From positions 192,001 to 256,000 of the forward strand of contig JBKAGE010000082.1 in assembly GCA_046290225.1 (NCBI GenBank): a DNA stretch of 64,000 bases, given 5' to 3'. Shown one piece after another: positions 32,019-48,537 of this stretch (its first letter is position 1; each line of letters begins with the position of its first letter). A program made the position numbers and the translations under genes. The stretch is from Bradymonadia bacterium (GTDB lineage: Bacteria > Myxococcota_A > Bradymonadia > UBA7976 > UBA1532). The notes beneath the pieces were generated by a model. The model did no database searches. It was given only the letters and a program-made list of their open reading frames with translations, and was not told the DNA's origin.

Positions 32019-33992
32019 ATGGGTCAAACCCCCTCAGATCCGCTGATCGGGCAAACGCTCGACGGCGAGTTCGAGGTGATCAGCCGTATCGGGGAAGGCG
32101 GCTTTGGATCGGTCTACAAGGCGATCCAGCACCCCCTGGGCCGCAAGGTGGCCGTCAAGGTGCTCAAGACCGACGGCCCGATGCAGAACCCCGTGGTGCA
32201 GAGCCGCTTCTTTCGTGAGGCCAAGGCCATCGCCAACCTGCGCAGCCCCCACACGGTGACGCTGCTCAAGTACAACCGCACGACGGCCACCCTCAACGGC
32301 ATCACTCAGCCCATCGTCTACATGGCCCTCGAGTTCATCGATGGCCCCGATCTACGCACCCTCGTAGAAGAGAAAGGGCCTCTGCCACCCAACCGCGTGC
32401 GCGATCTGGCCCTCGACATCCTCGAGTCGCTGCAAGAGGCCCACGATCAGGGCATCATCCACCGCGATCTCAAGCCGGAGAACGTGCTCGTCGACACCAG
32501 CCCCGACGGCCGTGAGTACGCCAAGGTGCTCGACTTCGGCATCGCCAAAGCCATGGAGGAGGGCGAGGCCCTCGACGAGTCGCTGACCCGCGAAGGCACG
32601 ATGCTGGGCACGCCGGTCTACATGGCCCCGGAGCAATTCACCCGGGATCCGATCGGTCCGTACACGGATGTCTACTCGCTGGGCATGATGCTCTACGCGC
32701 TGCTCACCGGCTCGCCGCCCTACCATGGCAGCACCTACAGCGTGATGTACGCCCACACTCAGGCACCACCGCCGCCCTTGCCCGAGCAGCTTGAGGGGCT
32801 GCCCCTCGGCGCAGTGCTGCAAAAGGCCATGGCCAAGACGCCCTCGAGCCGCTACGCGAACGCGGGCCAGATGCGCGCGGCGCTGCTGAACTTCGACGAA
32901 AACAGCGAGGGGCTCTCCCCGACGATCGAGGCACCACGCCCGCTGACGCCGCCACCGATCCTGTCCAGGCAGCTTACGCCTCCGACCCTCTCCGAGGTCG
33001 ACTCGACCCCCCTGCCGATGGTGGGTGCCCTCGGGCCGATCATCTCCCAGACGCCGGGGCCCGATGTCGAGCCGACCCGCTCACCTGAGGCTGCTTCACT
33101 GCCGGTTCTCGATACGGTGCACGAGCCTGTGCTGGAGATTACCGAAGACGACGAGGATCTGATCATGGAGGGCGCCACGGATTTGGGCCTGCCTCCGTTC
33201 TCGCCACCGACGGCGCAGATCCCGGTGAGCCCCGCACCTGAGGCCCCCTCCGTCGAGGGGCCACACATCCCCCTCAAGATCCAGCCACCTCAGCAGCCCA
33301 TGGTGGCCTCGAGGCCTGGTCCACCTTCTTCACACCGACCCCCGAGTGCCCGACGGACCAAGAAGGCACCGTCGGTGATGTTGATGACACTTGTGGCCCT
33401 CCTGATCTCCACAGGGGTGGTTTTTGCCGTGATGTACGCCACGGGTCAGTTCGAGGAAGAGGTGATCGTCGAGCAACCAGAGCTGCCCGGGGGCTCGGTG
33501 AACCTCGGCGGGGTGACGATGGGCTGTCCCAAGGGCATGGTGGCCATCACCCCCGACGACGTGGGCAAGCTGTTCTGCATCGACACCCACGAGCGCCCAG
33601 GAGCCGACAACACGCCAGAGCAAGGTGTGAGTCTCAAGTCGGCGCGGGCTCAGTGTGCTGCTGCTGGCCGCCGCCTGTGCACGGGCAAAGAGTGGGTGCG
33701 TGCCTGTGGCGCCGGACGCCACTTCCCCTACGGCAACACCTTCGAAGCGGAGCGTTGTGCCACTGATGGTGAGCTCGCCGCCTCGGGCAGCTTCGAGCGC
33801 TGTGCAGGCCGCTTCGGCACGTACGACATGAGCGGAAACGTGGCGGAGTGGACCGCCGACGGCAAAATCAGAGGGGGTGATGTGTCCTCAGGCGCTGATC
33901 AGGCGCGCTGCGATGCCCAGGTGAGCGCCAAAGAGGCCAAGGGCATGCAGGTGGGTTTTCGCTGCTGCGCCCGCCACCGCCAGCCCCGCTGA
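32019..33992 (+). CDS. Hanks-type Ser/Thr protein kinase with TM helix and extracytoplasmic FGE-sulfatase-like Cys-rich domain
   Basis: [74 protein letters not shown]. Confidence 0.93.
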
Positions 33993-35741
33993 TCAGGCAG
34001 CCTCTTCGTCCTTCTCTGCACCAGCCCCCGGGTCGGTCTCCATCTGAAACTCAGCCCCCTTGCGATGCACGTCGGCCATGGCCCGGCCAGAGATGTCGCC
34101 GGAGAAGGTCTCCCACGCTGGATCCCAGCTGAGGGCCTCGGGGGTGGAGCAGGCGATAGACCGCCCGGTGCCCACGGTGGCGATGGCGCTGCGCCCCGAG
34201 ACCTTGTCGGTGACGAAGGCCTCTTCGAAGAGCTCACGCATCCAATACATCTCCCCGGTGGTGGGGGTGTCTTCGGGGAACCGCTCACCACGGGCCGCCC
34301 ACTGCTCGGGGGTGAGGCGCTCGTCGGCAAAGGCCCGCAGTGTGTCGACCCAGTCGTAGCCGACGCCATCGGAGAACTGCTCTTTCTGACGCCACAACAC
34401 CTCGGCGGGCAGCCACGGATCATCGGCGTCGTCGAAGGCCTGGCGGATGATGGCTTTCTCGATGGGCCACCCATCGGGGCCGGGCAAGGGCTGCCGATGT
34501 GCAGGATCCATGGACATGGCGAGCTCGATGAAGGCCCGATCGAGGTAGGGAAACCTCAGCTCCAAACCATGGGCCATGGGCGCTTTGTTGGCTCGCATGA
34601 CGTCGTACTGATGCAGCCGGAAGGTCTTACGCACGGTCTCGTGGTGCAGCTCTTCGGGGCTCGGAGCCTTGTGGAAGTAGAGGTAGCCGGCCATCAGCTC
34701 GTCAGATCCCTCACCTGAGAGCACCATCTTGAAGCCCAGGGCCCGGACCTTCTGGGCGAGCAGGTAGGTGGGCACCGCGGTCCTGATCTGCTGGTAGCTC
34801 TCGAGATGCCGCGAGACGGCGGGTACGGCGGCGAGGGCCTCTTCTACGGTGAAGGTGAACTCGTGGTGCACGGTGCCGAGGAACTCGGCCACCTTGCGAG
34901 CGGGCTCGAGATCGGGACCCCCTTCGAGGCCAATGGAGAAGGTGTGCAGCGGGCCGCTGTACTCCACCTCTCCGGCGTCGACGAGCCGCTTGGCGGCGGC
35001 GGCGACCAGTGAAGAGTCGAGGCCTCCGGAGAGCAACACGCCAAAGGGTACGTCGGCCATGAACCGCTTGCGCACGGCCTCGACGACGGTCTCCCGAATC
35101 ACCGTAAGATCGGCAGGGGTGTCAGGCACGGTCTGCATCCACGGCCGCTGGTACCACTTGACGCGCTTCACCTCGCGGCCATCGCAGATCCAAGCGTGCC
35201 CGGGCTCGACGAGCTCGACGTGCATGCAGTCGTCGACGAGGGCTTTCATCTCTGAGGCGAACCACACAGTGCCGTCGTCGTGCAGGCCAATGTAGAGGGG
35301 GCAAATGCCAATGGGATCCCGAGCCACGAGCCAACGGCCAGTGCTGTCGTCGAGCACGGCGAGGGCGAACTGGCCATCGAGCTGGTGCATGAGCTGATCG
35401 CCGAAATGCTGCCACGCGGGGCCGATGACGGCGCAGTCGGATCCGGACTCCAGCTGCACCCCGAGCTGATCGCGCAGCTGGTGGTGGTTGTAGATCTCGC
35501 CGTTGGCGGCCCAAGCGATGGTACCCTGCTCACGGGTCTGGCTGAAGGGCTGCGCGCCGCCTTCAGGATCGACGATGGCGAGCCGCCGATGGCCGAGCAC
35601 GCCCCGCAGCCCTTGCCACACGCCGACGCCATCGGGGCCCCGGTGGGCGAGCCGCTCGATGAGCACGCTGGCCCGCAGATGATGCAGGTGAGCTTTCTGA
35701 TGGTCGACGGAAGGGTCAAGGATGGCCAGGATGCCGCACAT
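33993..35741 (-). CDS. asnB: Glutamine-hydrolysing asparagine synthase B
   Basis: MCGI, HRGPD, HRRLAIVD, NGEIYN, ARDPIGICPLY, LLSGGLDSS, SGEGSDE..AGYLYFHKAP, WRQKEQFSDGVG. Confidence 0.95.
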   Translation of the reverse strand: MCGILAILDPSVDHQKAHLHHLRASVLIERLAHRGPDGVGVWQGLRGVLGHRRLAIVDPEGGAQPFSQTREQGTIAWAANGEIYNHHQLRDQLGVQLESGSDCAVIGPAWQHFGDQLMHQLDGQFALAVLDDSTGRWLVARDPIGICPLYIGLHDDGTVWFASEMKALVDDCMHVELVEPGHAWICDGREVKRVKWYQRPWMQTVPDTPADLTVIRETVVEAVRKRFMADVPFGVLLSGGLDSSLVAAAAKRLVDAGEVEYSGPLHTFSIGLEGGPDLEPARKVAEFLGTVHHEFTFTVEEALAAVPAVSRHLESYQQIRTAVPTYLLAQKVRALGFKMVLSGEGSDELMAGYLYFHKAPSPEELHHETVRKTFRLHQYDVMRANKAPMAHGLELRFPYLDRAFIELAMSMDPAHRQPLPGPDGWPIEKAIIRQAFDDADDPWLPAEVLWRQKEQFSDGVGYDWVDTLRAFADERLTPEQWAARGERFPEDTPTTGEMYWMRELFEEAFVTDKVSGRSAIATVGTGRSIACSTPEALSWDPAWETFSGDISGRAMADVHRKGAEFQMETDPGAGAEKDEEAA

Positions 35742-35819
35742 GTCACTCTCCTCGAGGTCTACACCAACTCATCGGAGGGACGGGGCATGGGCGATAGCGC
35801 GAGGCTGTGGTGCGCCCAT

Positions 35820-35846
35820 AAAAAAACCCCGTCCATCGGACGGGGT
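35820..35846 (-). terminator. Intrinsic terminator in the asnB 5' leader (attenuator terminator)
   Basis: Minus strand CCCCGTCC-GAT-GGACGGGG followed by TTTTTTT, about 80 nt upstream of the asnB ATG. Confidence 0.85.
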
Positions 35847-35877
35847 CGGCGCTGTGTCGCGTTTTTGTGCGCTCAGC

Positions 35878-35967
35878 TCACCGGTGTCCCGCCCAAAGGG
35901 GGCGGGCATTATTGAGACCGCAGCGTTTGCTGTGGGTCGTACCGGTGATGGTGAGTCGCGAAGTCAT
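35878..35967 (-). CDS. Putative asnB leader peptide (29 aa, tandem Asn codons)
   Basis: Manual translation MTSRLTITGTTHSKRCGLNNARPLWAGHR*; AAT AAT at 35913-35908; lies between a promoter and the terminator. Confidence 0.7.
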   Translation of the reverse strand: MTSRLTITGTTHSKRCGLNNARPLWAGHR

Positions 35968-35973
35968 GTTCAA

Positions 35974-36003
35974 AGTGTGAGCGGATGCTGGAGGTGTTGT
36001 CAA
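35974..36003 (-). promoter_or_regulatory. sigma70-type promoter for the asnB leader
   Basis: Minus strand TTGACA (36003-35998), 18-nt spacer, CACACT (35979-35974), 6 nt, then the ATG of the leader peptide. Confidence 0.65.
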
Positions 36004-36081: not shown

Positions 36082-39000
36082 TCACTTCCCGTCGGACTTG
36101 CCCTCGGGGCTCTTCTCCGCAGGCTTGGCCTCAGAAGCCTTCTCTGGGGCCTTCTCAGAGGTTTTTTCTGAGGCTTTCTTTGGGGCCTTCTCAGCGGGCT
36201 TGTCACCCTTCTTCCCAGCCTCTTCCTGCGCCTTGCACTCCGGCGTGATGATCCGCGACAGGATCTTGAACTCCACCCGGCGGTTGCGGCGGCGACCGTC
36301 GGCGGTGTTGTTCGGCTCCAGAGGCTCGTCTTCGCCGAAGCCCTTCGCCACCAGACGGTTCGCCGCGAGCTTGCCCTTGTCGATCAGGTAGCGGCGCACC
36401 TGCTCCGCGCGGCGCTTCGAGAGATCGAGGTTGTAGCTCGCCGGACCGCGGCTGTCGGTGTGACCGCCCACCTGCACCTTGCGGATACTCGGGCTGTTGC
36501 GCATCAGCTGCACCACATCGTCGAGCAGCTTCTGCGACTCGTCACGGAGCGTGGCCGAGTCAGTCTTGAACAGCACGCGCTGACCCTTGAGATCGATGCG
36601 ATCACACTGCACCTTCGGGCCCTCGGGGCGGGTGTCCGGGCAGCCATCGTCGTCCTCGAAGTCGTTCACGTTCTCCGCGTCGTTCGGGCACTTGTCTTCC
36701 TTGTCGAGGAAGCCGTCCTTGTCGTTGTCCGGATCCGGGCAACCGTCAGCATCCTCGAACTCGTCGACATCCTCAGGGTCGAGGGGGCACTTGTCCGAAG
36801 CGTCGGGCACGCCGTCCTTGTCGTTGTCGAGATCCGGGCAGCCGTCCTCGTCCTCGAACTCGTCCTTGTCCTCAGCGTCGTTCGGACACTGATCAGGCTC
36901 GTCGAGGATGCCGTCACCGTCGTTGTCCGGATCCGGGCAGCCATCCTTGTCCTCGTAGTCGTCTTTGTCCTCAGGCTCGTTGACGCACTTGTCTTCGTCG
37001 TCGTAGATGCCGTCGCCATCGGTATCCACTCGGGGAGCAGGCTCCTTGTAGGGCTCCGCACGGAAGGCCAGGCCGCTGAAGAGGCGCCAGTCGGGCGTGC
37101 CCACGCCCTGCACCAGGCCCGTGGCGGCGCCCAGCTCGAGGCGCAGGCGCTCCAGCACATCCCAGCGGACCCCCATGAGCAGCTCCATGGGGATCTCCTC
37201 CTCGTCGATGCTGTCCGCGGCCACCGTCGCCGAGCCCATGATCTCGGGCACCAGGCTGAAGCCACCCCCCACGGGGATGGCCGCACCGGCGCTCCAGATC
37301 AGGGCGTCGTCGATCTCGGCGTTGGCCAGACGGGCCTTCTCTCGGAAGCGCCAGCCCACGTTCGCCGCGAGGCGGGTGCCCCCGGAGAAGCCGTAGTCCA
37401 CCGCCACCCGAGGCGTCGCCCCAAAGCCTTCGCCCTGGTACGAAGCGTTGTCCCCCGTGGGGATCGAGAAGTCGCCGACGAGGGCCAGGCCGAAACCACC
37501 TGCCTCTTCGCCAGGCTTGCCCACGAGGCCCACCCGGGCGCTCACCCGGATGTCACCGATGCCGAAGCCCGCGTCGTTCGCCGCGCCGCCGGGCACCGAG
37601 GGCACCTCTTCGCCGTCTTGCGACAGCACCACAGGGGCCACCACGCCGAGGTCGAGCCAGTCGAAGATGCCCAGCGTCAGGGCGAGGTTCGCCGTCAGCT
37701 GGTGCTCGATGAGGTGGCCGAGGCGATCACCGTTGGCGCCCTCCACCACCAGGGGGTTGTCATCGAAGGTCAACAACACGCCGAGATCGTAGCGGCCCTG
37801 ACCGCGAGTGCGGCCCGTCCAGGTGGAGTTGAGATCACCCCAGCGGCTCGGCGCCGGGCGGAACTGCTGCACGTCGAAGCGATCGTTCGCCTGAGCCTGA
37901 GCCTGCTCGGGCATCGACGCCAGCACCACCGGCGCCAGCAGCGCCAGCCACAGCACCTGCCGAGACTGGGCAGTGCGACGGGCGCGAGGCGCGCGGGCGA
38001 CTTCTAGAAGCCGCCTCCGACGCATCATGCCCAGAGCCAGCAACATGAAGGCCAGCAGCGCAGCGGTGCCACCAGCGCTCGAGGTCGCCGAAGCGTCGCA
38101 ACCGAAGAACTGGCCACCGAGCACCTTGGGATCGTCATCGTTCGGGTCGAGCGGATCAGCCCCTCGGCCCACCTCGATGCCGTCGTTCACGCCGCCGTCG
38201 TCGGTGTCGGGATCGTTGGGATCCGTCTCACCGTCGTCTACAGCACCGTTGGCGTTCATGTCCTCGCCCTCGTCACAGACATCCTCCACGGCGACAGCGC
38301 CGTCACAGAGGCCGTCACCATCAGAGTCGGCGTTCGTCGGGTCAGTGGCGTTCTCGGCGTTGACCTCGTCGCCGTCGTCGATGCCGTCACCGTCCGTGTC
38401 GCTGTTGTTGGGATCAGTGCCCAGCATCTCTTCCGTGTCGTTGTCGATGCCGTCGCCGTCGTCGTCCTGCACGTCGTCCTCGGGATCGAGGGGATCCGTG
38501 CCGCGCTCCACCTCTTCACCGTCGGAGATCGTGCCCCCGTCGGTGTCGGCGTTGTTCGGATCGGTCTCTCCGTCGTCGATGGCACCGTTCTGGTTCTCGT
38601 CTTCCTCACCGTCTTCGAGGCCGTCGTCGTCGGTGTCGGCGTCCAGCGGATCGGTGGGGTTCTCGCCGAGCACCTCGATGCCGTCGGAGAGGCCGTCACC
38701 ATCGGTGTCGGGGTTGTTCGGGTCGGTGCCCCGCATCATCTCGTCTTCGTCGCCGAGGCCGTCACCATCGCTGTCAGGGCCACGGGCGTCGTCCGAAGGG
38801 TCGAGCGGATCAGTCTCGTTCATCACCTCTTGACCATCACCCACGCCACCGTCATCGGTGTCGAAGTCGTTGGGATCAGTCTCACCCTCGTCCAGGGCGC
38901 CGTTGCCGTTGGCGTCTTCCTCACCATCAGTGAGGCCGTCGTCATCGGAGTCGTCGTCCAGCGGATCAGTGGGGTTGTCACCGGTGACCTCGGTGCCGTC

Positions 39001-42000
39001 GGAGAGACCATCCCCGTCACCATCCGGGTTGTTCGGGTCAGTCTCGCCTTCGTCGATGGCGCCGTTGTTGTTCACATCTTCACCGGCAGCACACTCGTCT
39101 TCCACGGCGTTGGCACCATCACACAGGCCATCGTCGTCGGAGTCAGCGTCCAGCGGATCAGTGGGGTTCTCGCCGTTGACCTCGGTGCCGTCGTTGATGC
39201 CGTCACCATCAGTGTCGGGGTTCGTCGGATCAGTGCCGATCATCACCTCTTCACCGTTGGGCAGGCCGTCACCGTCGAAGTCGCCGGAGAGGTCGTCCAC
39301 CGGATCGAGCGGGTCAGTGCCGTCCATGGTCACCTCGACGCCGTCAGGCACGCCGCCGTTGTCGGTGTCCGCGTTGTTCGGATCGGTCTCACCCTCATCG
39401 ATGGCACCGTTGTTGTTCACGTCCTCGCCAGCGGCGCAGACATCTTCCACAGCGTTGGCACCATCACAGAGGCCATCGTCGTCGGAGTCGGGGTCGAGCG
39501 GATCAGTGGGGTTGTCACCGTTGAGTTCAGTGCCGTCGTTGATGCCGTCACCATCAGTGTCGGGGTTGTTCGGGTCAGTCTCGCCCTCGTCCACGGCGCC
39601 GTTGTTGTTGGCGTCCTCACCGCCAGAGCACTCACCGTCGAGCTCGTTGGCACCGTCACACAGGCCATCGTCGTCAGTGTCGCGATCCAGAGGATCGGTG
39701 GGGTTGGCGCCGAGGACCTCGGTGCCGTCGAGGATGCCGTCACCGTCCGTATCAGCGTCGTTGGGATCAGTCTCGCCTTCGTCGATGGCGCCGTTGTTGT
39801 TGGCGTCCTCACCGGGCACACAGACGTCCTCCACCTCGGCGCTGCCGTCACAGAGACCATCGTCATCGGAGTCGGGGTCGAGCGGATCCGTGGGGTTGTC
39901 CCCGAGGACCTCGGGACCATCGAGGATCCCGTCGTCGTCGGAGTCCGGGTCGAGCGGATCAGTGCCCGCGTCGATCTCACCCTGGTTATCCAGGCCGTCG
40001 TTGTCAGCGTCGCCGCCGAGATCGTCGAGGGGGTTGAGCGGGTCAGTGCCGTCGATGAGCACCTCGACGCCGTCGGGCACGCCGCCGTTGTCGGTGTCCG
40101 CGTTGTTCGGATCAGTCTCGCCCTCGTCCACAGCGCCGTTGTTGTTCATGTCTTCGCCACCGGCGCAGATGCCCGCCACGCTGCGGCTGCCGTCACAGAG
40201 GCCATCGCCATCGGTGTCGGCCTGAACCGGATCGGTGGGGTTGGCGCCGAAGACCTCAGTGCCATCGAGGATGCCGTCACCGTCGGTGTCGGGGTTGTCC
40301 GGGTCAGTGCCCAAACGGCCCTCGTCGCCATCGTTGAGGCCGTCACCGTCGCGATCACCAGGTACATCGTCAGCGGGATCGAGCGGATCAGTGTTGTCGG
40401 TGATGACCTCCTGGCCATCGCCCACGCCACCATCGTCGGTGTCGAAGTCGTTGGGGTTGGTCTCACCCTCGTCCAACGTGCCGTTGTTGTTCACGTCCTC
40501 GCCAGCGACGCAGATGCCGTCCACGGGCAGCTGGCCGTCACACAGGCCGTCGTCGTCGGAGTCGGGGTCCAGCGGATCGGTGCTGTTCTCACCATTGACC
40601 TCGATGCCGTCGCTGATGCCATCGCCGTCGGTGTCGGGGTTGTCCGGATCAGTGCCCAGACGATCCTCGTCACCATCGTCCAGGCCGTCGCCGTCACGGT
40701 CGTCGAGCTGGTCATCTGCAGGATCAAGCGGATCAGTGTCATCAACGATGACCTCTTCGCCATCGCCCACGCCACCATCATCGGTGTCGAAGTCGTTGGG
40801 GTTGGTCTCACCCTCGTCGACAGCACCATTGTTGTTGGCGTCCTCGCCAGCGGCGCAGCCCCCTTCGATGGCGTTGCCACCATCACACAGACCGTCGTCG
40901 TCAGAGTCAGCGTCGAGCGGGTTCGTGGGGTTCTGACCGTTGACCTCGCGACCATCGAGGATGCCATCGCCATCCGTATCAGGGTTGTCGGGGTCAGTGC
41001 CCAGGATGATCTCTTCACCATCCGTGAGGCCATCACCGTCGCGATCCCGAGGGGCGTCGGCGAGATCATCTGCAGGATCCAGAGGATCGGTGCCGTTGAA
41101 GAGCACCTCGAGGCCATCGCTCACGCCGCCGTCGTCAGTGTCGGCGTTGTTCGGATCAGTCTCGTCAGCGTCGGTGGCGCCGTTGTCGTTGGCGTCTTCC
41201 ACACCATCGAGCAGGCCATCGTCGTCAGAGTCGCGGTCCAGCGGATCAGTGGGGTTGTCCCCGGCGACCTCGGAGCCATCAGAGCGGCCGTCGTTGTCGG
41301 TGTCGGGGTTGTTCGGGTCGGTCTCGCCTTCGTCGATGGCGCCGTTGTTGTTGGCATCCTCACCGGCGGCGCAGACACCGTCGATGGCGTTGGCGCCATC
41401 ACACAGGCCGTCATCATCAGAGTCAGGGTCCAGCGGATCAGTGGGGTTGTCCCCCTCGATCTCCACGAGATCCTCGATGCCGTCACCGTCGGTATCGGCG
41501 AGGTTCGGATCGGTCTCGCCCTCGTCGATGGCGCCGTTGTTGTTCACGTCTTCGCCGGAGACACAGACGCCGTCGATGGCGTTGGCGCCATCACACAAGC
41601 CGTCATCGTCGGTGTCGGGGTTCAACGGGTTCGTGGGGTTGTCGCCGTTGACCTCAGTGCCGTCGCTGATGCCATCACCATCGGTGTCGGGGTTGTTCGG
41701 ATCCGTGCCGAGATCATCCTCGTCGCGATCGAGCAGGCCGTCACCGTCGGTGTCGAGCAGATCATCGTCGGGGTTGAGCGGGTCAGTGCCGTCCACGAGC
41801 ACCTCGCGGCCATCGTCGATGCCACCGTTGTCAGTATCCGCGGTGTTCGGATCGGTCTCGCCCTCGTCGATGTCACCATCAACGTCGACGTCCTCACCCG
41901 AGACACAGACATCGGCCACGTCAGCGTTGCCATCGCAGAGGCCGTCATCGTCAGAGTCGGGGTCCAGCGGATCAGTGGGGTTGTTCCCGTTGACCTCAGT

Positions 42001-45000
42001 GCCGTCGATGATGCCGTCACCATCGGTGTCGGCGACGTTGGGATCAGTTTCGCCCTCGTCGAGGATGCCGTTGTTGTTGGCGTCCTCACCCTCGGCGCAC
42101 ACGTCGATCACCGTCTCGGCGCCGTCACAGAGACCGTCGTCGTCGGTGTCGGGATCCAGCGGATCAGTGGGGTTGTCACCGTTGGTCTCAGTGCCGTCGT
42201 CGATGCCGTCACCGTCGGTGTCAGCGGTGTTCGGGTCAGTCTCGCCCTCGTCGATGGCGCCGTTGTTGTTGATGTCTTCGCCGGCGATGCAGACGCCGTC
42301 CACGATGGCGCTGCCGTCACAGAGACCGTCGCCATCCGTGTCGGGGTTCAGCGGGTTCGTGGGGTTGGCGCCGAGGACCTCAGGGCCGTCGAGGATGCCA
42401 TCGTCATCGGTGTCGGGATCATTGGGATCCGTACCCGCGGTCTCCTCGTCACGGTCGAGCAGACCGTCGCCGTCGCTGTCGACACGGTCATCGTTGGGAT
42501 CGAGCGGATCAGTGCCATCGACGAGCACCTCGGTGCCGTCGTCGACGCCGCCGTTGTCGGTGTCCGCGGTGTTCGGGTCAGTCTCGCCTGCGTCGATGGC
42601 GCCGTTGTTGTTGGCGTCCTCGCCGTCCACACACACATCGGCCACGTCAGCGCTGCCGTCACAGAGACCATCATCGTCGGAGTCAGGATCCCGGGGGTCC
42701 GTGGGGTTGTCGCCGAGGCGCTCGGTGCCATCGGAGATGCCATCAGCGTCGGTGTCGGGGTTGTTCGGATCGGTCTCGCCCTCGTCGAGCACGCCGTCGG
42801 CGTCGAGATCCTCACCGGCGACACAGATGCCGTCGAAGGCCACGGGGCCGTCGCAGAGGCCGTCGTCGTCAGCGTCGACGTCGTCGTCGTCGGGATCCAC
42901 GTCCGTGGGCACACCGTCGCCGTCCTGATCGTTCGTCGAGGCGATGGTCACCGTCGTGGCGTCGCCGATGATCAGCTCAGTGCTGGGATCGTCCGAGACG
43001 ATGCCCCCGTAGCCGTCGTCGGCGGCGAGGGTGGCCTGGTTGCTGAACTGGGTGCCTGCAGGACGGGGACTGGCCACAGTGACCTGGAAGCCCAGGGTGA
43101 CCGCCTCGCCCGGAGGCAGGCTGGCGATGGTGGCCGTGATCCGGGTGGGATCAGCGAGGACCGCGGCGTTGCCGAAGTCCGCCGGGAACACATTGGCCGA
43201 GCCCGGCACCAGGGTGACATGGGTCTCGTCCACGACATCGTCGATGACCACGTTGGTGGCCGTGGCGGTGCCGGTGTTGCTCGCCGTCACCTGCCACGTG
43301 ATCACATCGCCGGGCTCCACATCGCCACCATTGATGTCCACGAAGGTCTTGTTGAAGACCAGTCGGGGCGCGTCGGGGGCCACCCGAATCTCCACGGTGT
43401 CGTCGCCCTCGTTGTTCCGACCGAAGACACCGTCGGTGTCGGCGTAGTCGGAGTTTGGCGACAGGCGGATGATGTCTGCACCGGGCACCGTCTGGTACTC
43501 ACCGAGGGTGGCCGCGAGCAAACCCTCGTCGGGGCCGATGGCCTGCTCCGCCACAGCGCGGAAGTTCCATGCAAAGGCGTCGCCGGGGTTGGTGCAGCCG
43601 GCGAGATCGATGCGCAGGATGCCGTTGTCGAGGAGATCGGCCTCGTCGGCCTCGTCGGTGTCACCATCATTGTCATTGTCGATGCCGTCGTTCGCCGGAT
43701 CAGCGAGCACTAGGCCATCGGGGATGGTGAAGGTGATGTCGGTGTCGCACACCAGGCCGTCGAGCAGGTTCTCGTACTCGAGGCGGAAGTTCACCTCTTC
43801 ACCGGCCTCGGGGGTGGTGTTGTCGGCGCTGATGCGCATGCGGGGGCCCGACAACCGGATGTGCACGGGGATGTCCACCCGGTCGGTCAGGCGGCCGTCC
43901 AGGGAGACCTCGGCGCTCTGGAACTCGTCCACAGCGGAGGCGAGGAACCGGGTGGGCTGATGCTCGGCGGTCACCCGAAGCACGAAGCTGTTGTTCGTGG
44001 GATCGTTGTCGCCGTAGGCGATCACAGTGCCCACGTACATCAGCAGCCCGGCGCTGGGCACCCCGCTCACCGCAGGATCGAAGTTGGGCACCTCGGGGAA
44101 CTCGCCGTTGAAGTTGTCGGCGATGCGCTCGATGCGGGTCAGGGTGAGACCCTCGTAGGGCAGCTCCCGCACCCGCATGATGGGGCTGGTGCCCTCGGCC
44201 ACGGTGACGGTGATGTCGTAGACGACCGTCTGGCCCACCGAGATGTCGGGCTCAAAGCCCGAGAGGGGCTCCGCGCTCACGAAGACCTTCTCGATGGTGG
44301 GATCAGGCACGTCGATGTCGGCGTTGCCCACGACGATGTAGTCGTCAGGGCCAACGTCAGCGCCGGTCCGCTCCCCGGCGACGTTGCCGAGCAGGCTGGT
44401 CCAGGTGACCTCGAGGGGGTAGCCGGTGTCCACGGCGCCAGCGCGATCGTTGAGCAGCACCGACTGGATGAAGGTACAGCTCTCGCCGGGCTCGAGGGTG
44501 TTGCCCAGGTTGCCGGCGCCGTCGGGCAGACAGGTACCGGCGGGGTTGCCCACGAAGTTCTCCACGTACAGAGGCTGCACGCCGAAGTCGTAAGCCAGAT
44601 CCTGAGCAGGCGAGTCGCCGACGTTGGTGATCACCCACGCCATGATCGCCACGTCGCCGGCGTCTTCAGTGGGGGCCGGGCCGCTCGTCACGGTGAGCTG
44701 CGGCTCCACCACGGTGACCTCGGCTTCGGAGGTGGCGCCATTGGCGCTCATGCGGTTCACCAGCACGTCGCCGGCGTTCACCGACTCGAGGTTCTCCACC
44801 CGCGTCACCAGGGTGATGACCACCGCCTCGTCGACGCCGTCAGCGTCTCGATCGGTGTTGTTCACGGCGTCGAGGACCCAGGTCAGGTTGCGGCCGTTCA
44901 CCACCGGGGCGGGCAGGTTGGCGATGTTGATCGCCGGCTCCGCCACGATGTTCGAGCTCACATAGGCCAGGCCTTCGGGCAGAGCGTCGAAGATCTCCAG

Positions 45001-48000
45001 GCCCGCGGGGCTGTTCCCCTCGGGGATCTCCACCCGCAAGGTGAAGGTCACCTCTTCACCGATGGTGACCTCGGCGTCGCCCACCAGGGTCTTGCCCGTG
45101 CCGTAGTTGCGGATGCTCACGCCACCGTCGGGGCCCACGCGGTAGTCGTTCTGGGCCACGTCAGCGGCCCCCGTGCGCTCCGTGGAGTCGGCGTCAAAGG
45201 CCGAGAGCACGCCGGGGTCGCCGGCCTGGCTCGTCCAGGTGAGGGTGCCGTTGGCGGCGATGTCAGTCCCGGGCACGATGTCGTCGGGCACCGTGGCGCT
45301 CAGGGTGATGGTCACCGTCTCCCCCTCGGGGAAGCTGGCCCAGTTCGCCGTGAGGGTGCTGCCCACGAGGCTCGGGGCGGCGTCAGCGGCGAGGCCGGCG
45401 ACATTGTCGATGCTCAATCCCAGCAGATCTGCGGGCAGATCGACGCTCAGTGCCACGTCGAAGGCATCGTTCGAATTGTCACGGTGGTCGATGACCAAGT
45501 CGATGAGGACAGCATCACCGGCATCGGCGGCGCCTCCCTGAGTGGTCAGCGCCATCTGCATGCGGGGCTCGTCGATGATCACCGGGGGCGTGCCGTCGGT
45601 GATCTGCTGACCGGCGCCCTCAAGGGTCCAGTCGAGGCTCACGGTGTTGCGCAGCTCGTCGCCGTTGTTGGCCTCGGCGTTGTTGAGCACCACCGCCACC
45701 AGATCGATGGCGATCTCCTCGTCGCCGTCGTCATCGGCGTTGTTGGTCACGTCGCCGAGGTCGAGGGTGAAGCCACGGCCCGCAGCGTCGACAGCGGCGG
45801 CAGGTACGCCCACCGAGAAGACCAGATCAGGATCCGCGTTGACCGCCGTCACCGAGACCACGGCGAGCTCCGCCGGGAGCGTCTCGATGATCGTCGCAGC
45901 GGGGGTCTCACCCTCGGGCACGATGGTGCGGATGCGGTAGCTGATCAGATCGCCGATTTGCACAGCGGCGAAGTTTCCGGGGGCCACTAGGCTCTTGATG
46001 AGCTGAGGCTGGGGCACCGAGAGTTCGGTGTCGGCGGAGAGTACGCCGAAGCCTGCAGCGGCGAAGTTCGCCGCGCCGTCGTCGTCCACAGAGCGGTAGC
46101 GGGTGATGGCGGCCTCACCGAGCAGGGACTCACCGGCCTGCACATCTCGATCGAGACGCACGCTGTAGCGAATCACCGCGATGTTCTGGCCGTTGTCGTC
46201 ATCGCGCTCGGCGAGGGGGGCCTCGAGGGAGAGACCGGCGCCGAAGAGATCACCGGCCACGGCGAGGGCAGAGCCGTCACCGAGGGTGGCGGTGACCCCA
46301 CCTTCCAGGGTCGCGCCGTCGGGCAGCGTCGCCGTGACCAGGGCGTCGAAGGCCGGGTGACCGCCCTGGTTCTCCACCAGCAGCGTCAGCTCCACGAGAT
46401 CGCCTGCGTCGACGCCCACAGCGTCGGCGTTCTCGCCCGAAGCGTCCAGCGCAGCAGAGGAGTACGCGTTCAGGCCCGTGGGCGCAGGCAGCAGGCGGGC
46501 ATCGGCGCGATCGCCGTCGACGGCCGTAGCGCCCTGCGTAATCACCAGATCAGGGGCCAGGACCACCACCGCCTCAGCGGCTACGGAGGAAGTGCTCACC
46601 GCCTCGGTGTTCACACCGGTGGCCGTGGCCAGGTTCGCGAACTCCAGGCCGTCGTCGAAGGGCTCCGCCTGCGCCGTGAAGTCCATCTCGATGGTGACCA
46701 CCACCTGCACCGACGGCTCGTTGTTGAAGTCGGGGAAGGTGAAGATGATGGCGTTGTCAGCGGCGTTGGTGGTCACCGACTGCGGCAGCACCCCTGCGGG
46801 GTTCGAGGTCACCCGGATGGGCCCGTTGGCGTCCACGACGGGGTTGGCCCCGTGCTCCGTGGCCTGGAACAGGGCCAGGGGCAGGTAGTCGGTCACCACC
46901 ACCGACTCTTGATCCCCACTGTAGAGGGTCAGATCGAGGGCGAAGGTCACCACATCACCGGGGCGAAGTGGGGCGCCGATCTCGGGGGCGGCACCGTTCA
47001 CCGCCACAACGCGCTTCTGCAGCGCAGGCTCACCGACGAAGATCGTCTTGTCGGCCTGGCCGCGGATCTCGTCAGTGCTCTGGGGCGCTGCGTCGCCCTG
47101 CACCACCCCGGAGAGGGTGTGCAGAGTGGGCAGCACGTCACCGCCGAGCACCAGCGAGTCGTCGCCGTACCGCTCATCTACCTGAGCACGGTACGTGATC
47201 ACTCGGGTGGTACCATTGGCTTCACCACCGGCCACAGTGCCAGCGCCTGCGGTGTTCAGAGTCAGCTGACCCGGATCGCCTTCGACGAAGCCACCGAGTT
47301 CGAAGGGCGCCGGCAGCTGTGCCGAGCCGTCGACGTAGCTCAAACCGTCGGCGAGATCAGAGACCAGCGTGTCGAAATCGAAGGTGAAGTAATCCGAGAC
47401 GCTCAGATCGAGCTGGATGCGCGCCTCGTGGCCCGGCCGGAAGGGCTGATCGGGGGCAGTCTCGTTGAAGATCTGCTCCACGATGCGGAAGGCGTACACG
47501 TCCACCGCCGCCGGCGTGGTCACGGGATCGAGCACCACAGGTGGATCCGCCACATCTGCGGGGGCCAGCGTCACACCTTCCAGCGTGGGGCTGTGGGTCA
47601 CGGTGACCGGCTGCCCCGTGCCCGTGTTCGGATCGAGATCGATGGTGGGGTTTCCGGCGCCGTCGAGCTCGGTGTAGTAGCCCTCCACCGTGAACTCCAC
47701 CTCGGCGCCGTCGGCCCCCACGAAGGGATCGAGCTGCACCGTGAAGCTGCCGCCAGCGTCGGGGAGCGGGAAGGCCGCGGGATCAAAGGTGACCCCGCCA
47801 GCCACCGCAGTGACCCCCGTGACCTGGAAGCGCGAGTCCACGGGGTACACCACGTCACCACCGAGGACCTCGGCACCCGCGGCGGCGTCGACCCGTACGC
47901 GGTACTGCGTGCGGGTGAAGCCCGGCCCGGAGGTGGTCGGGAAGCCGCCCGAGTGACGCAAGCCCACCACAGTGGGCGTGATGGCGATGTTCTGAGTCAC

Positions 48001-48537
48001 CCCATTGATCGGCGCATCAGCCCCGGGGTTGTTCTGCGCATCCTGACCGAGATCGAAGGCACACGTAACACCTATGTCTACCGTGCTCGTCGGCGTATCA
48101 GGGGCAATGTCGAAGCGGGCCTCGATCAGCGCCTCGGGGGCATCTGCGGCGAGGCCGCTCACTGGCACCTGCAAGTGATAAAGGGTGAACCCCTCAGGGC
48201 CAGTGACCGGCTGACCCGTGATCGGGTGTGGCAGCTGGTTGCCCGGCGCAGCGGGGAACACCCCGCCATTGACGACACGGGCGGGCAAACCCAGGGCCTC
48301 GGCGCTCGACAGGCTGAATCCCGGCGGCGCGAAGAGCGCCACGCCAGGGCCAAAGCCTGCTGCATTGCCAGTGTTGTCGAGTGTGATCGCGAGCTCGACC
48401 CCATCCCCAACGAGGGGGGTGGTGGTCGACTCGAAGTCGAGCTCGAGATTGCAAGTGGGCGTTTGAGCGCTCGCGGCGCTCGAGAGCCCCGCCCAGACCA
48501 GTGCTGCTGCGCACGCGTTCCAATAATGCCGAGGCAT
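36082..48537 (-). CDS. Giant surface adhesin (4151 aa): pilin-D2/DUF11-like Ig repeats, Asp-rich Ca-binding repeats, internal MYXO-CTERM-like motif, beta-barrel, TSP3 repeats, OmpA-like domain (AgmC/TraAB-like)
   Basis: Signal peptide; (I/P)GD.VT(F/Y) beta domains; [12 protein letters not shown] repeats; GGQFFGC-linker-TM-RRRR; barrel ending [19 protein letters not shown] repeats; VGGHTD...NLDLSKRRA...GFGE..P...RRNRRVEF. Confidence 0.9.
38130..42930 (-). repeat. Coding tandem array of Asp/Gly/Asn-rich repeats within the giant adhesin
   Basis: 15 copies of the GLCDG motif, each C-x9-C, counted by eye, interspersed with GETDPN.DTD.DG and NPTDPLD units. Boundaries approximate. Confidence 0.85.

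Follow-up and report, generated by a model that had tools for sequence, protein, structure and literature searches.

Which signal governs the expression of asnB, the gene for asparagine synthetase B, in the genome of Bradymonadia bacterium (GCA_046290225.1)? The gene lies on the minus strand of a stretch of 64,000 nucleotides of contig JBKAGE010000082.1 (positions 192,001 to 256,000), which we analysed at its full length and call the window, and it is preceded by a short open reading frame (ORF) and by a hairpin followed by a run of U. A first-pass annotation of this DNA had read the arrangement as an attenuator, in which a ribosome stalled on two consecutive Asn codons prevents formation of the terminator. 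Our analysis supports this reading. Ribosome-masked folding, an Asn-rich ORF and a terminator that are conserved in relatives, covariation in one family and a conserved promoter spacing all point to a ribosome-mediated transcription attenuator, which very probably senses Asn-tRNA and allows asnB to be transcribed when charged Asn-tRNA is low. The promoter and the ORF consist of the following features.

35998..36003, minus strand: predicted -35 box TTGACA (from the sequence; the trp leader of the same genome shares the box and the 18-nt spacer).
35974..35979, minus strand: predicted -10 box CACACT, with the ATG 6 nt further on (from the sequence; the spacing recurs in the leaders of relatives).
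35878..35967, minus strand: leader ORF of 29 codons plus TGA (35880-35878), starting at ATG 35967 (from the sequence; Asn-rich ORFs stand at the equivalent position in 8/8 closest relatives).
35908..35913, minus strand: sensing codons AAT AAT, codons 19-20 of the ORF, nine codons ahead of the stop (from the sequence).

The minus-strand sequence bears out the promoter of the first-pass annotation, in which an 18-nt spacer separates TTGACA from CACACT and the latter ends 6 nt ahead of ATG 35967; on inspection of the sequence, no Shine-Dalgarno (SD) was found ahead of this ATG. On the basis of the 6-nt distance and the missing SD, and with the spacing kept in 22/31 leaders, the transcript is predicted to start at or next to ATG 35967 and to be leaderless. 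The 29-codon ORF, with a tandem AAT AAT as its sole Asn codons, had also been described correctly, and the contrast that had been drawn with the AAC of nearby genes extends to the whole genome: AAT accounts for 15% of the Asn codons in long ORFs, so that the chance of both leader codons being AAT is about 0.02. Since tRNA-Asn(GUU) was the sole Asn tRNA type found in the genome (two genes), AAC and AAT share one tRNA and AAT is read by wobble.

Between these codons and asnB, the RNA can adopt alternative structures, built from the following elements.

35900..35906, minus strand: segment 1, the anti-antiterminator, which pairs with segment 2 (from folding).
35888..35896, minus strand: segment 2, partner either of segment 1 (via 35894-35888) or of segment 3 at 35844-35836, the latter pairing being the antiterminator (from folding).
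35847..35883, minus strand: inner helices that lengthen the predicted antiterminator (from folding).
35820..35847, minus strand: intrinsic terminator, segments 3 and 4 (core 35845-35827) with seven U at 35826-35820 (from a terminator scan and folding).
35778..35786, minus strand: second copy of the terminator 5' arm, which might bind segment 4 after read-through (from folding and a duplex test).

Both AAT codons stand directly 5' of segment 1. The leader as a whole folds with unusual stability (z = -5.6; 0/200 shuffles equally stable), and the terminator hairpin has a computed energy of about -18 kcal/mol and was also picked up by a terminator scan. The pairing of segments 1 and 2 (35906-35900 with 35894-35888) and the terminator with its U7 ending at 35820 had been proposed earlier and agree with sequence and folding; the alternative pairing of segments 2 and 3 holds as well, and the antiterminator turned out to be longer than described, owing to the inner helices at 35883-35847. 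The 2:3 duplex gave p = 0.037 against 300 shuffles. The duplex of the second 5'-arm copy (35786-35778) gave p = 0.003 here and p <= 0.05 in 2/7 subclade relatives tested; a conserved fifth segment was considered and is not established, with p <= 0.05 in just 4/22 loci.

The effect of a ribosome was modelled by folding the RNA, taken from the ATG onwards, while its 5' portion was kept single-stranded, the masks ending 9, 12 or 15 nt beyond either Asn codon, or beyond the stop; this treatment covered two leaders, the asn leader and the trp leader of the same genome. When the mask represented a stall and the RNA ended before the terminator 3' arm, the 2:3 antiterminator (segment 2 at 35896-35888 on 35844-35836, plus the inner helices) was the best fold in 6/6 settings, with energies from -28.0 to -29.1 kcal/mol. 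When the mask extended beyond the stop codon, the fold reached -4.1 kcal/mol and the antiterminator was absent in 3/3 settings, and in the computed fold of the ribosome-free RNA segment 1 pairs off segment 2. The geometry is that of an attenuator with all three mask lengths (9, 12 and 15 nt): a ribosome on the Asn codons covers segment 1 only, while at the stop it covers segment 2. The exchange of antiterminator and terminator that had been expected from folding with a ribosome footprint was therefore obtained in the masked folds.

The comparison with relatives carries the second part of the evidence. The AsnB of the window falls in a lineage of proteins about 55-79% identical, in which the members that carry a name come from Planctomycetota, Vicinamibacterales and one Myxococcota bacterium. 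Upstream DNA was available for eight of its loci (L039, L119, L141, L142, L165, L232, L235 and L236); L165 is a partial hit at 49%, placed by its N-terminus once its leader had been seen, and four further loci (L156, L172, L193 and L197, 54-64%) lack upstream DNA and are outside the count. As a test for a leader, Asn codons were counted within 12 codons of an upstream ORF, because a criterion of adjacent Asn-Asn misses L039. An upstream ORF containing 3 or more Asn per 12 codons is present at all eight loci, and 7/8 reach at least 4, a level that each of ten control amino acids reached in 0/8. The distances are also kept: the last Asn lies 9-12 codons ahead of the stop and the U-tract ends 53-60 nt beyond it (9 codons and 58 nt in the window). 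In 7/8 there is a hairpin, its energy between about -18 and -27 kcal/mol and its core mostly CCCCGTC/GACGGGG, followed by a T-rich tail that is weak in L039 and L141; in each of these seven relatives, inspection by eye shows a segment 2 that is rich in G and complementary to the 5' arm of the terminator. An absence of conserved Asn codons or stems in relatives had been named in advance as evidence against the attenuator, and what was found is a conserved Asn-rich ORF with a conserved terminator.

The asnB of the window is about 60% identical to Planctomycetota-labelled proteins, as compared to 48-51% to those of its own family, and this closer relationship hints that gene and leader may have been transferred together.

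The same comparison bears on the possibility that a metabolite, and not the ribosome, governs the terminator, so that the locus would hold a ligand-binding riboswitch with a linker that reads Asn-Asn by accident. The ribosome-free first 100 nt do fold stably as a three-way junction, in which a long stem CACCGGU/ACCGGUG closes two hairpins and an unpaired A/U-rich linker, and there is a weak likeness to Scr1601 in Rfam (24.9 bits against a cut-off of 100). However, the Scr1601 and anti-hemB matches are far under cut-off and largely consist of generic hairpins; none of the 10 Rfam matches at E <= 10 is a riboswitch family, a T-box or an aptamer model. Moreover, the features conserved among relatives are an open frame, Asn codons of either kind, and a start and a stop at fixed distances, whereas the nucleotides of seven subclade leaders align weakly upstream (z 0.3-3.0). 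We consider the riboswitch highly improbable. Nor does the element match the Rfam models of known leader families: nothing in the window region matched Rfam at gathering level (the best amino-acid leader was Leu_leader, 14.1 bits against 50) and the loci of 12 relatives gave 0 matches at that level.

Covariation was observed in a second family, Xanthomonadaceae-like, which was reached from L113 in genome G416 (record titled Luteimonas); 50/61 genomes matched, and the best 30 of the 50 were examined. At least 4 Asn per 12 codons were present in 23/30 loci, with 0-1 for control amino acids. On the alignment of this family, the terminator is 99% paired and the 2:3 antiterminator 87% paired, with 8 cells altered on both sides. 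Three antiterminator pairs show such two-sided changes, including a change from G-C to A-U in three sequences that keep a terminator U-G at that position. None of 500 shuffles gave covariation as high, in a test that kinship can inflate, and slid controls were 27-45% paired.

The predicted leaderless start is also shared. A TTG-type -35 and a -10 pattern stand 5-9 nt ahead of the leader start in 5/8 loci of the closest lineage and in 17/23 of the G416 family, against a background of 7/1413 and 28/6058 start codons, respectively (about 0.5%); the same pattern was found ahead of asnB itself in 0/8 and 0/23. A SD precedes the leader in 0/8 and 4/23 loci, and asnB in 7/8 and 23/23. The preference for AAT recurs too: AAT represents 26/37 and 56/136 of the Asn codons in the leaders of the two groups, as compared to 2/23 and 30/202 in the asnB stretches of the same loci. 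We infer that slower decoding of AAT lies behind this bias.

These promoter data, together with the upstream neighbourhood, speak to a simpler explanation, according to which the hairpin merely ends the transcript of the preceding gene, the short ORF is due to chance, and expression of asnB depends either on a promoter located within the 78 nt that follow the terminator or on unregulated, constant read-through. The preceding gene (36082-48537, minus strand) is an ORF of 4151 aa with many Asp/Gly-rich repeats; its C-terminus resembles the OmpA type and we take it to encode a surface protein. Since no other U-tract terminator was found on the minus strand between the stop of this gene (36082) and the asn leader, the hairpin may also end its transcript. 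On the other hand, the hairpin sits at a distance of 235 nt from that stop and has a promoter-like site of its own ahead of it, and relatives keep both ORF and terminator behind unrelated upstream neighbours. A promoter downstream of the terminator, which had been named as a possible refutation of the attenuator, did not appear: neither the sequence that follows the terminator in the window nor the DNA just ahead of asnB in the 31 leader-bearing relatives showed a promoter-like site. Of the explanations weighed here, we give this one the least credence.

The gene content of the genome fits the proposed sensor. AsnB scores 588.7 bits against PRK09431 (cut-off 499) and is encoded by the sole copy of asnB over the family cut-off in the genome, which is 99.4% complete. 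The same genome encodes an asnS that exceeds its cut-off, and searches for gatB and asnA gave no match. With this gene content, Asn-tRNA would come from free asparagine alone, with AsnB as its sole source, and a codon sensor would be of use under such conditions. Among the leader-bearing genomes tested, asnS was present in 5/5.

Several observations weigh against the attenuator and have to be set beside this evidence. The -10 box is non-consensus; a generic promoter scan did not list the leader promoter, because CACACT agrees with the consensus at 3/6 bases. The promoter pattern used for relatives was devised after CACACT had been seen, and therefore the match of this leader is by construction. 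Two loci of the closest lineage deviate: L235 has a leader ORF but no U-tract terminator, and L236 is without a clear start near a promoter. As for the pairing, no 2:3 covariation was found in the closest lineage (MAFFT alignment, out of register; 66% paired, 390/500 shuffles as high), and alignment-free 2:3 duplexes reached p <= 0.05 in 4/9 rows there (window, seven relatives and L163) and in 13/23 in the G416 family (L251 among them, its hairpin wrongly picked). The proposal that upstream regions of relatives would share an Asn-rich ORF and covarying stems thus held for the ORF and, in 7/8, for the hairpin; for the stems it held in the Xanthomonadaceae-like family, with no covariation seen in the closest lineage. 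Furthermore, gatB was over its cut-off in 2/5 of the leader-bearing genomes tested, and the leader is not universal, as runs of Asn ahead of asnB were no commoner than those of control amino acids in 75 mixed loci. With two Asn codons, the leader of the window has the lowest count in its lineage (3-5 in relatives). Finally, the full-length leader favours the terminator at equilibrium in every setting, the stall mask included (P 0.91-1.00). Since the terminator wins at equilibrium in the full-length RNA, the switch must be kinetic, with the antiterminator acting as a co-transcriptional trap, which is the usual view of attenuators.

The last two points would also be expected of a decayed asparagine attenuator, which would respond weakly, or to a general slowdown of translation, and whose main effect would be a low, constant level of read-through into asnB; in addition, no close relative among the sequences compared could display selection on both AAT codons. 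Against decay, the leader agrees with those of relatives in all its segments, in its promoter spacing, in the 9 codons that part the last Asn from the stop and in the 58 nt between the stop and the end of the U-tract; both codons are the rarer AAT and lie next to segment 1, and two consecutive sensing codons are enough in mycobacterial leaderless Cys ORFs (10.1101/834739). Decay is unlikely in our judgement, although it deserves more weight than the riboswitch.

For the Asn-tRNA-sensing attenuator, the following sequence of events is proposed. Transcription would start at or next to ATG 35967, where a ribosome would load without a SD. When Asn-tRNA is scarce, the ribosome would wait at AAT AAT and cover segment 1; segment 2 would then pair with the terminator 5' arm before the 3' arm exits the polymerase, and transcription would read through into asnB. 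When Asn-tRNA is ample, the ribosome would reach the TGA and cover segment 2 (or leave, in which case the 1:2 pairing would form), the terminator would fold and transcription would end near 35820. With AsnB as the sole route to asparagine, Asn-tRNA would track the product of the enzyme and close the feedback loop.

How unusual is this arrangement in the genome as a whole? Among its 292 terminator-like sites, 113 stand ahead of the start of a gene, and a short ORF lies upstream at 66 of the 113; a short ORF with Asn-Asn occurs at 2/113 terminator-plus-gene sites. The other Asn-Asn site, in G000 contig C37 near 322984 (plus strand), is without the promoter pattern. The strict TTGACA form of this pattern was found at 16/624,533 ATG/GTG sites, and, among the terminator-plus-gene sites of the genome that have an upstream short ORF, the pattern stands 5-9 nt ahead of the ORF start at two, the asn leader and a trp leader. 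The latter is unannotated, with four codons for Trp, and lies ahead of the best trpE match (L270:2948-3141, minus strand; G000 contig C79 near 226960-227155). Its promoter consists of TTGACA, 18 nt, CACCCT, 7 nt and ATG, so that the two leaders share the pattern TTGACA-18-CAnnnT. Spacing is similar downstream, with ten codons from the last Trp to the stop and 56 nt from the stop to the end of the U-tract, as compared to nine codons and 58 nt in the asn leader, and in masked folding the trp leader behaved in the same way, its equilibrium preference for the terminator included. It would be a second, independent case of this promoter type and of a predicted leaderless start, though itself unproven. 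Derivation of the asn leader from the trp leader was considered and rejected: the two align colinearly, but with z 1.9 and p 0.049, no better than against the Asn leaders of relatives. Beyond terminator-like fragments, no further copies of the asn leader were found in the genome. In the one DNA run listed, X1, the matches were short and scattered and none of them spanned the leader, so that this run speaks neither for nor against the element.

Outside the two families described above, the leader is scattered. Among canonical asnB genes of the window's own phylum, the Asn filter matched 6/38, three of which (L210, L212 and L217) look like ends of upstream genes and were not counted; leaders thus appear to be mostly absent from these genes. 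Convincing Asn leaders, with 3-4 AAC-only codons near the stop and 60-150 nt upstream of asnB, were seen at L002, L003, L005 and L208; the one of L003 was missed by the start-finding pattern of the Asn count and was seen independently of it. At these four loci a hairpin covers the asnB ribosome-binding site and has no U-tract, which suggests translational attenuation, and they are likely a translational version of the Asn sensor. Among the 75 mixed loci, only L047, L111 and L113 were leader-like. At L047 (L047:1170-1500), a leader of 17 codons, nine of them Asn, is accompanied by a U-tract terminator; although the title of the record names Alteromonas, its low-GC DNA and the start of its AsnB give a Bacteroidota-like impression and the label may be wrong. 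The loci obtained from metagenomes were dominated by eukaryote-like asnB, with low-GC upstream DNA that produced spurious Asn matches.

The remaining features concern the structural gene itself.

35748..35753, minus strand: SD GAGGAG of asnB (from the sequence).
33993..35741, minus strand: asnB, asparagine synthetase B, 582 aa (profile match PRK09431).

AsnB contains 3 Asn in 582 residues, as compared to a genome mean of 2.2% and an average of 0.95% in close homologs, and this scarcity may ease its synthesis during starvation. As support for the sensor it was discarded as weak: the Poisson probability is 0.0014, but 136/1142 (12%) ORFs of similar size are as low. At its 3' end, asnB abuts a convergent Ser/Thr kinase gene (32019-33992, plus strand) at 33992/33993, with a gap of zero, and the scan of 33500-34300, a stretch that holds the 3' ends of both genes, gave no terminator-like site.

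Taken together, these data make it reasonably probable, judging from sequence comparison, that a widespread and undescribed class of Asn-sensing attenuators governs asnB in several phyla, with a terminator or the ribosome-binding site as output, leaderless and with slow AAT codons in this lineage and in Xanthomonadaceae-like bacteria, and reduced to a minimum of two sensing codons in the window. If this is true, asparagine joins the amino acids of attenuation, many bacteria that charge tRNA-Asn directly tune their sole asparagine synthetase without a regulator protein, and leaderless translation drives attenuation of the terminator type in bacteria other than Actinobacteria, the asn and trp leaders of this genome being two cases. 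The element comprises 150 nt with exact predictions for start, 3' end and mutants, and it could serve as an asparagine biosensor. The surprise is limited by the fact that the mechanism is a textbook one.

The amino acids for which textbooks describe ribosome-mediated attenuation are Trp, His, Leu, Thr, Ile/Val and Phe, and trpL, hisL, thrL, pheL and ilvL are the classical amino-acid leader attenuators. Like these, the asn leader combines a short ORF with cognate codons, alternative 1:2, 2:3 and 3:4 pairings, a U-tract terminator and a biosynthetic gene downstream; unlike these, it senses asparagine, is predicted to be leaderless and has just two sensing codons. Asparagine supply is controlled by other means elsewhere: in Firmicutes by Asn-specific T-box riboswitches, to which uncharged tRNA binds directly, and in E. 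coli by AsnC, a DNA-binding protein that regulates asnA. Both exert feedback on asparagine supply genes as the asn leader would do, but neither uses a translated leader. The asparagine specificity is apparently undescribed, in a system of textbook logic and leaderless build. A full-text literature search, limited to listings and the starts of abstracts, gave no bacterial asparagine leader-peptide attenuator, and subscription papers on predicted attenuators may bear on this point. Asparagine and asnB are absent from the available parts of PMC11109978, PMC6429828, PMC5314783 and PMC8632094 and from the readable supplements of two of them, the supplement of PMC11109978 being outside the search. 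In the literature, leuL is treated as a leader-peptide transcription attenuator (PMC5314783), the general scheme of leader-peptide attenuation is laid out (10.1101/834739), and Cys appears as a more recent addition to the attenuation amino acids (10.1101/834739, PMC8632094). One of the Cys systems, uORFC-8-2 ahead of cysS in Rhodobacterales, was likewise predicted from comparative genomics to be an attenuator with a specificity outside the textbook set, in which a stall is expected to permit read-through; it differs in its Cys codons and in governing an aminoacyl-tRNA synthetase gene (PMC8632094). The polycysteine leaderless short ORFs of mycobacteria share with the asn leader, in what is available of their description, the leaderless sensing of an amino acid and the sufficiency of two consecutive codons (10.1101/834739). 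They differ in responding to cysteine and in that the case dissected there governs a SD, whereas the asn leader has an intrinsic terminator; from the same partial description, this SD-sequestering form resembles the Asn leaders of L002, L003, L005 and L208.

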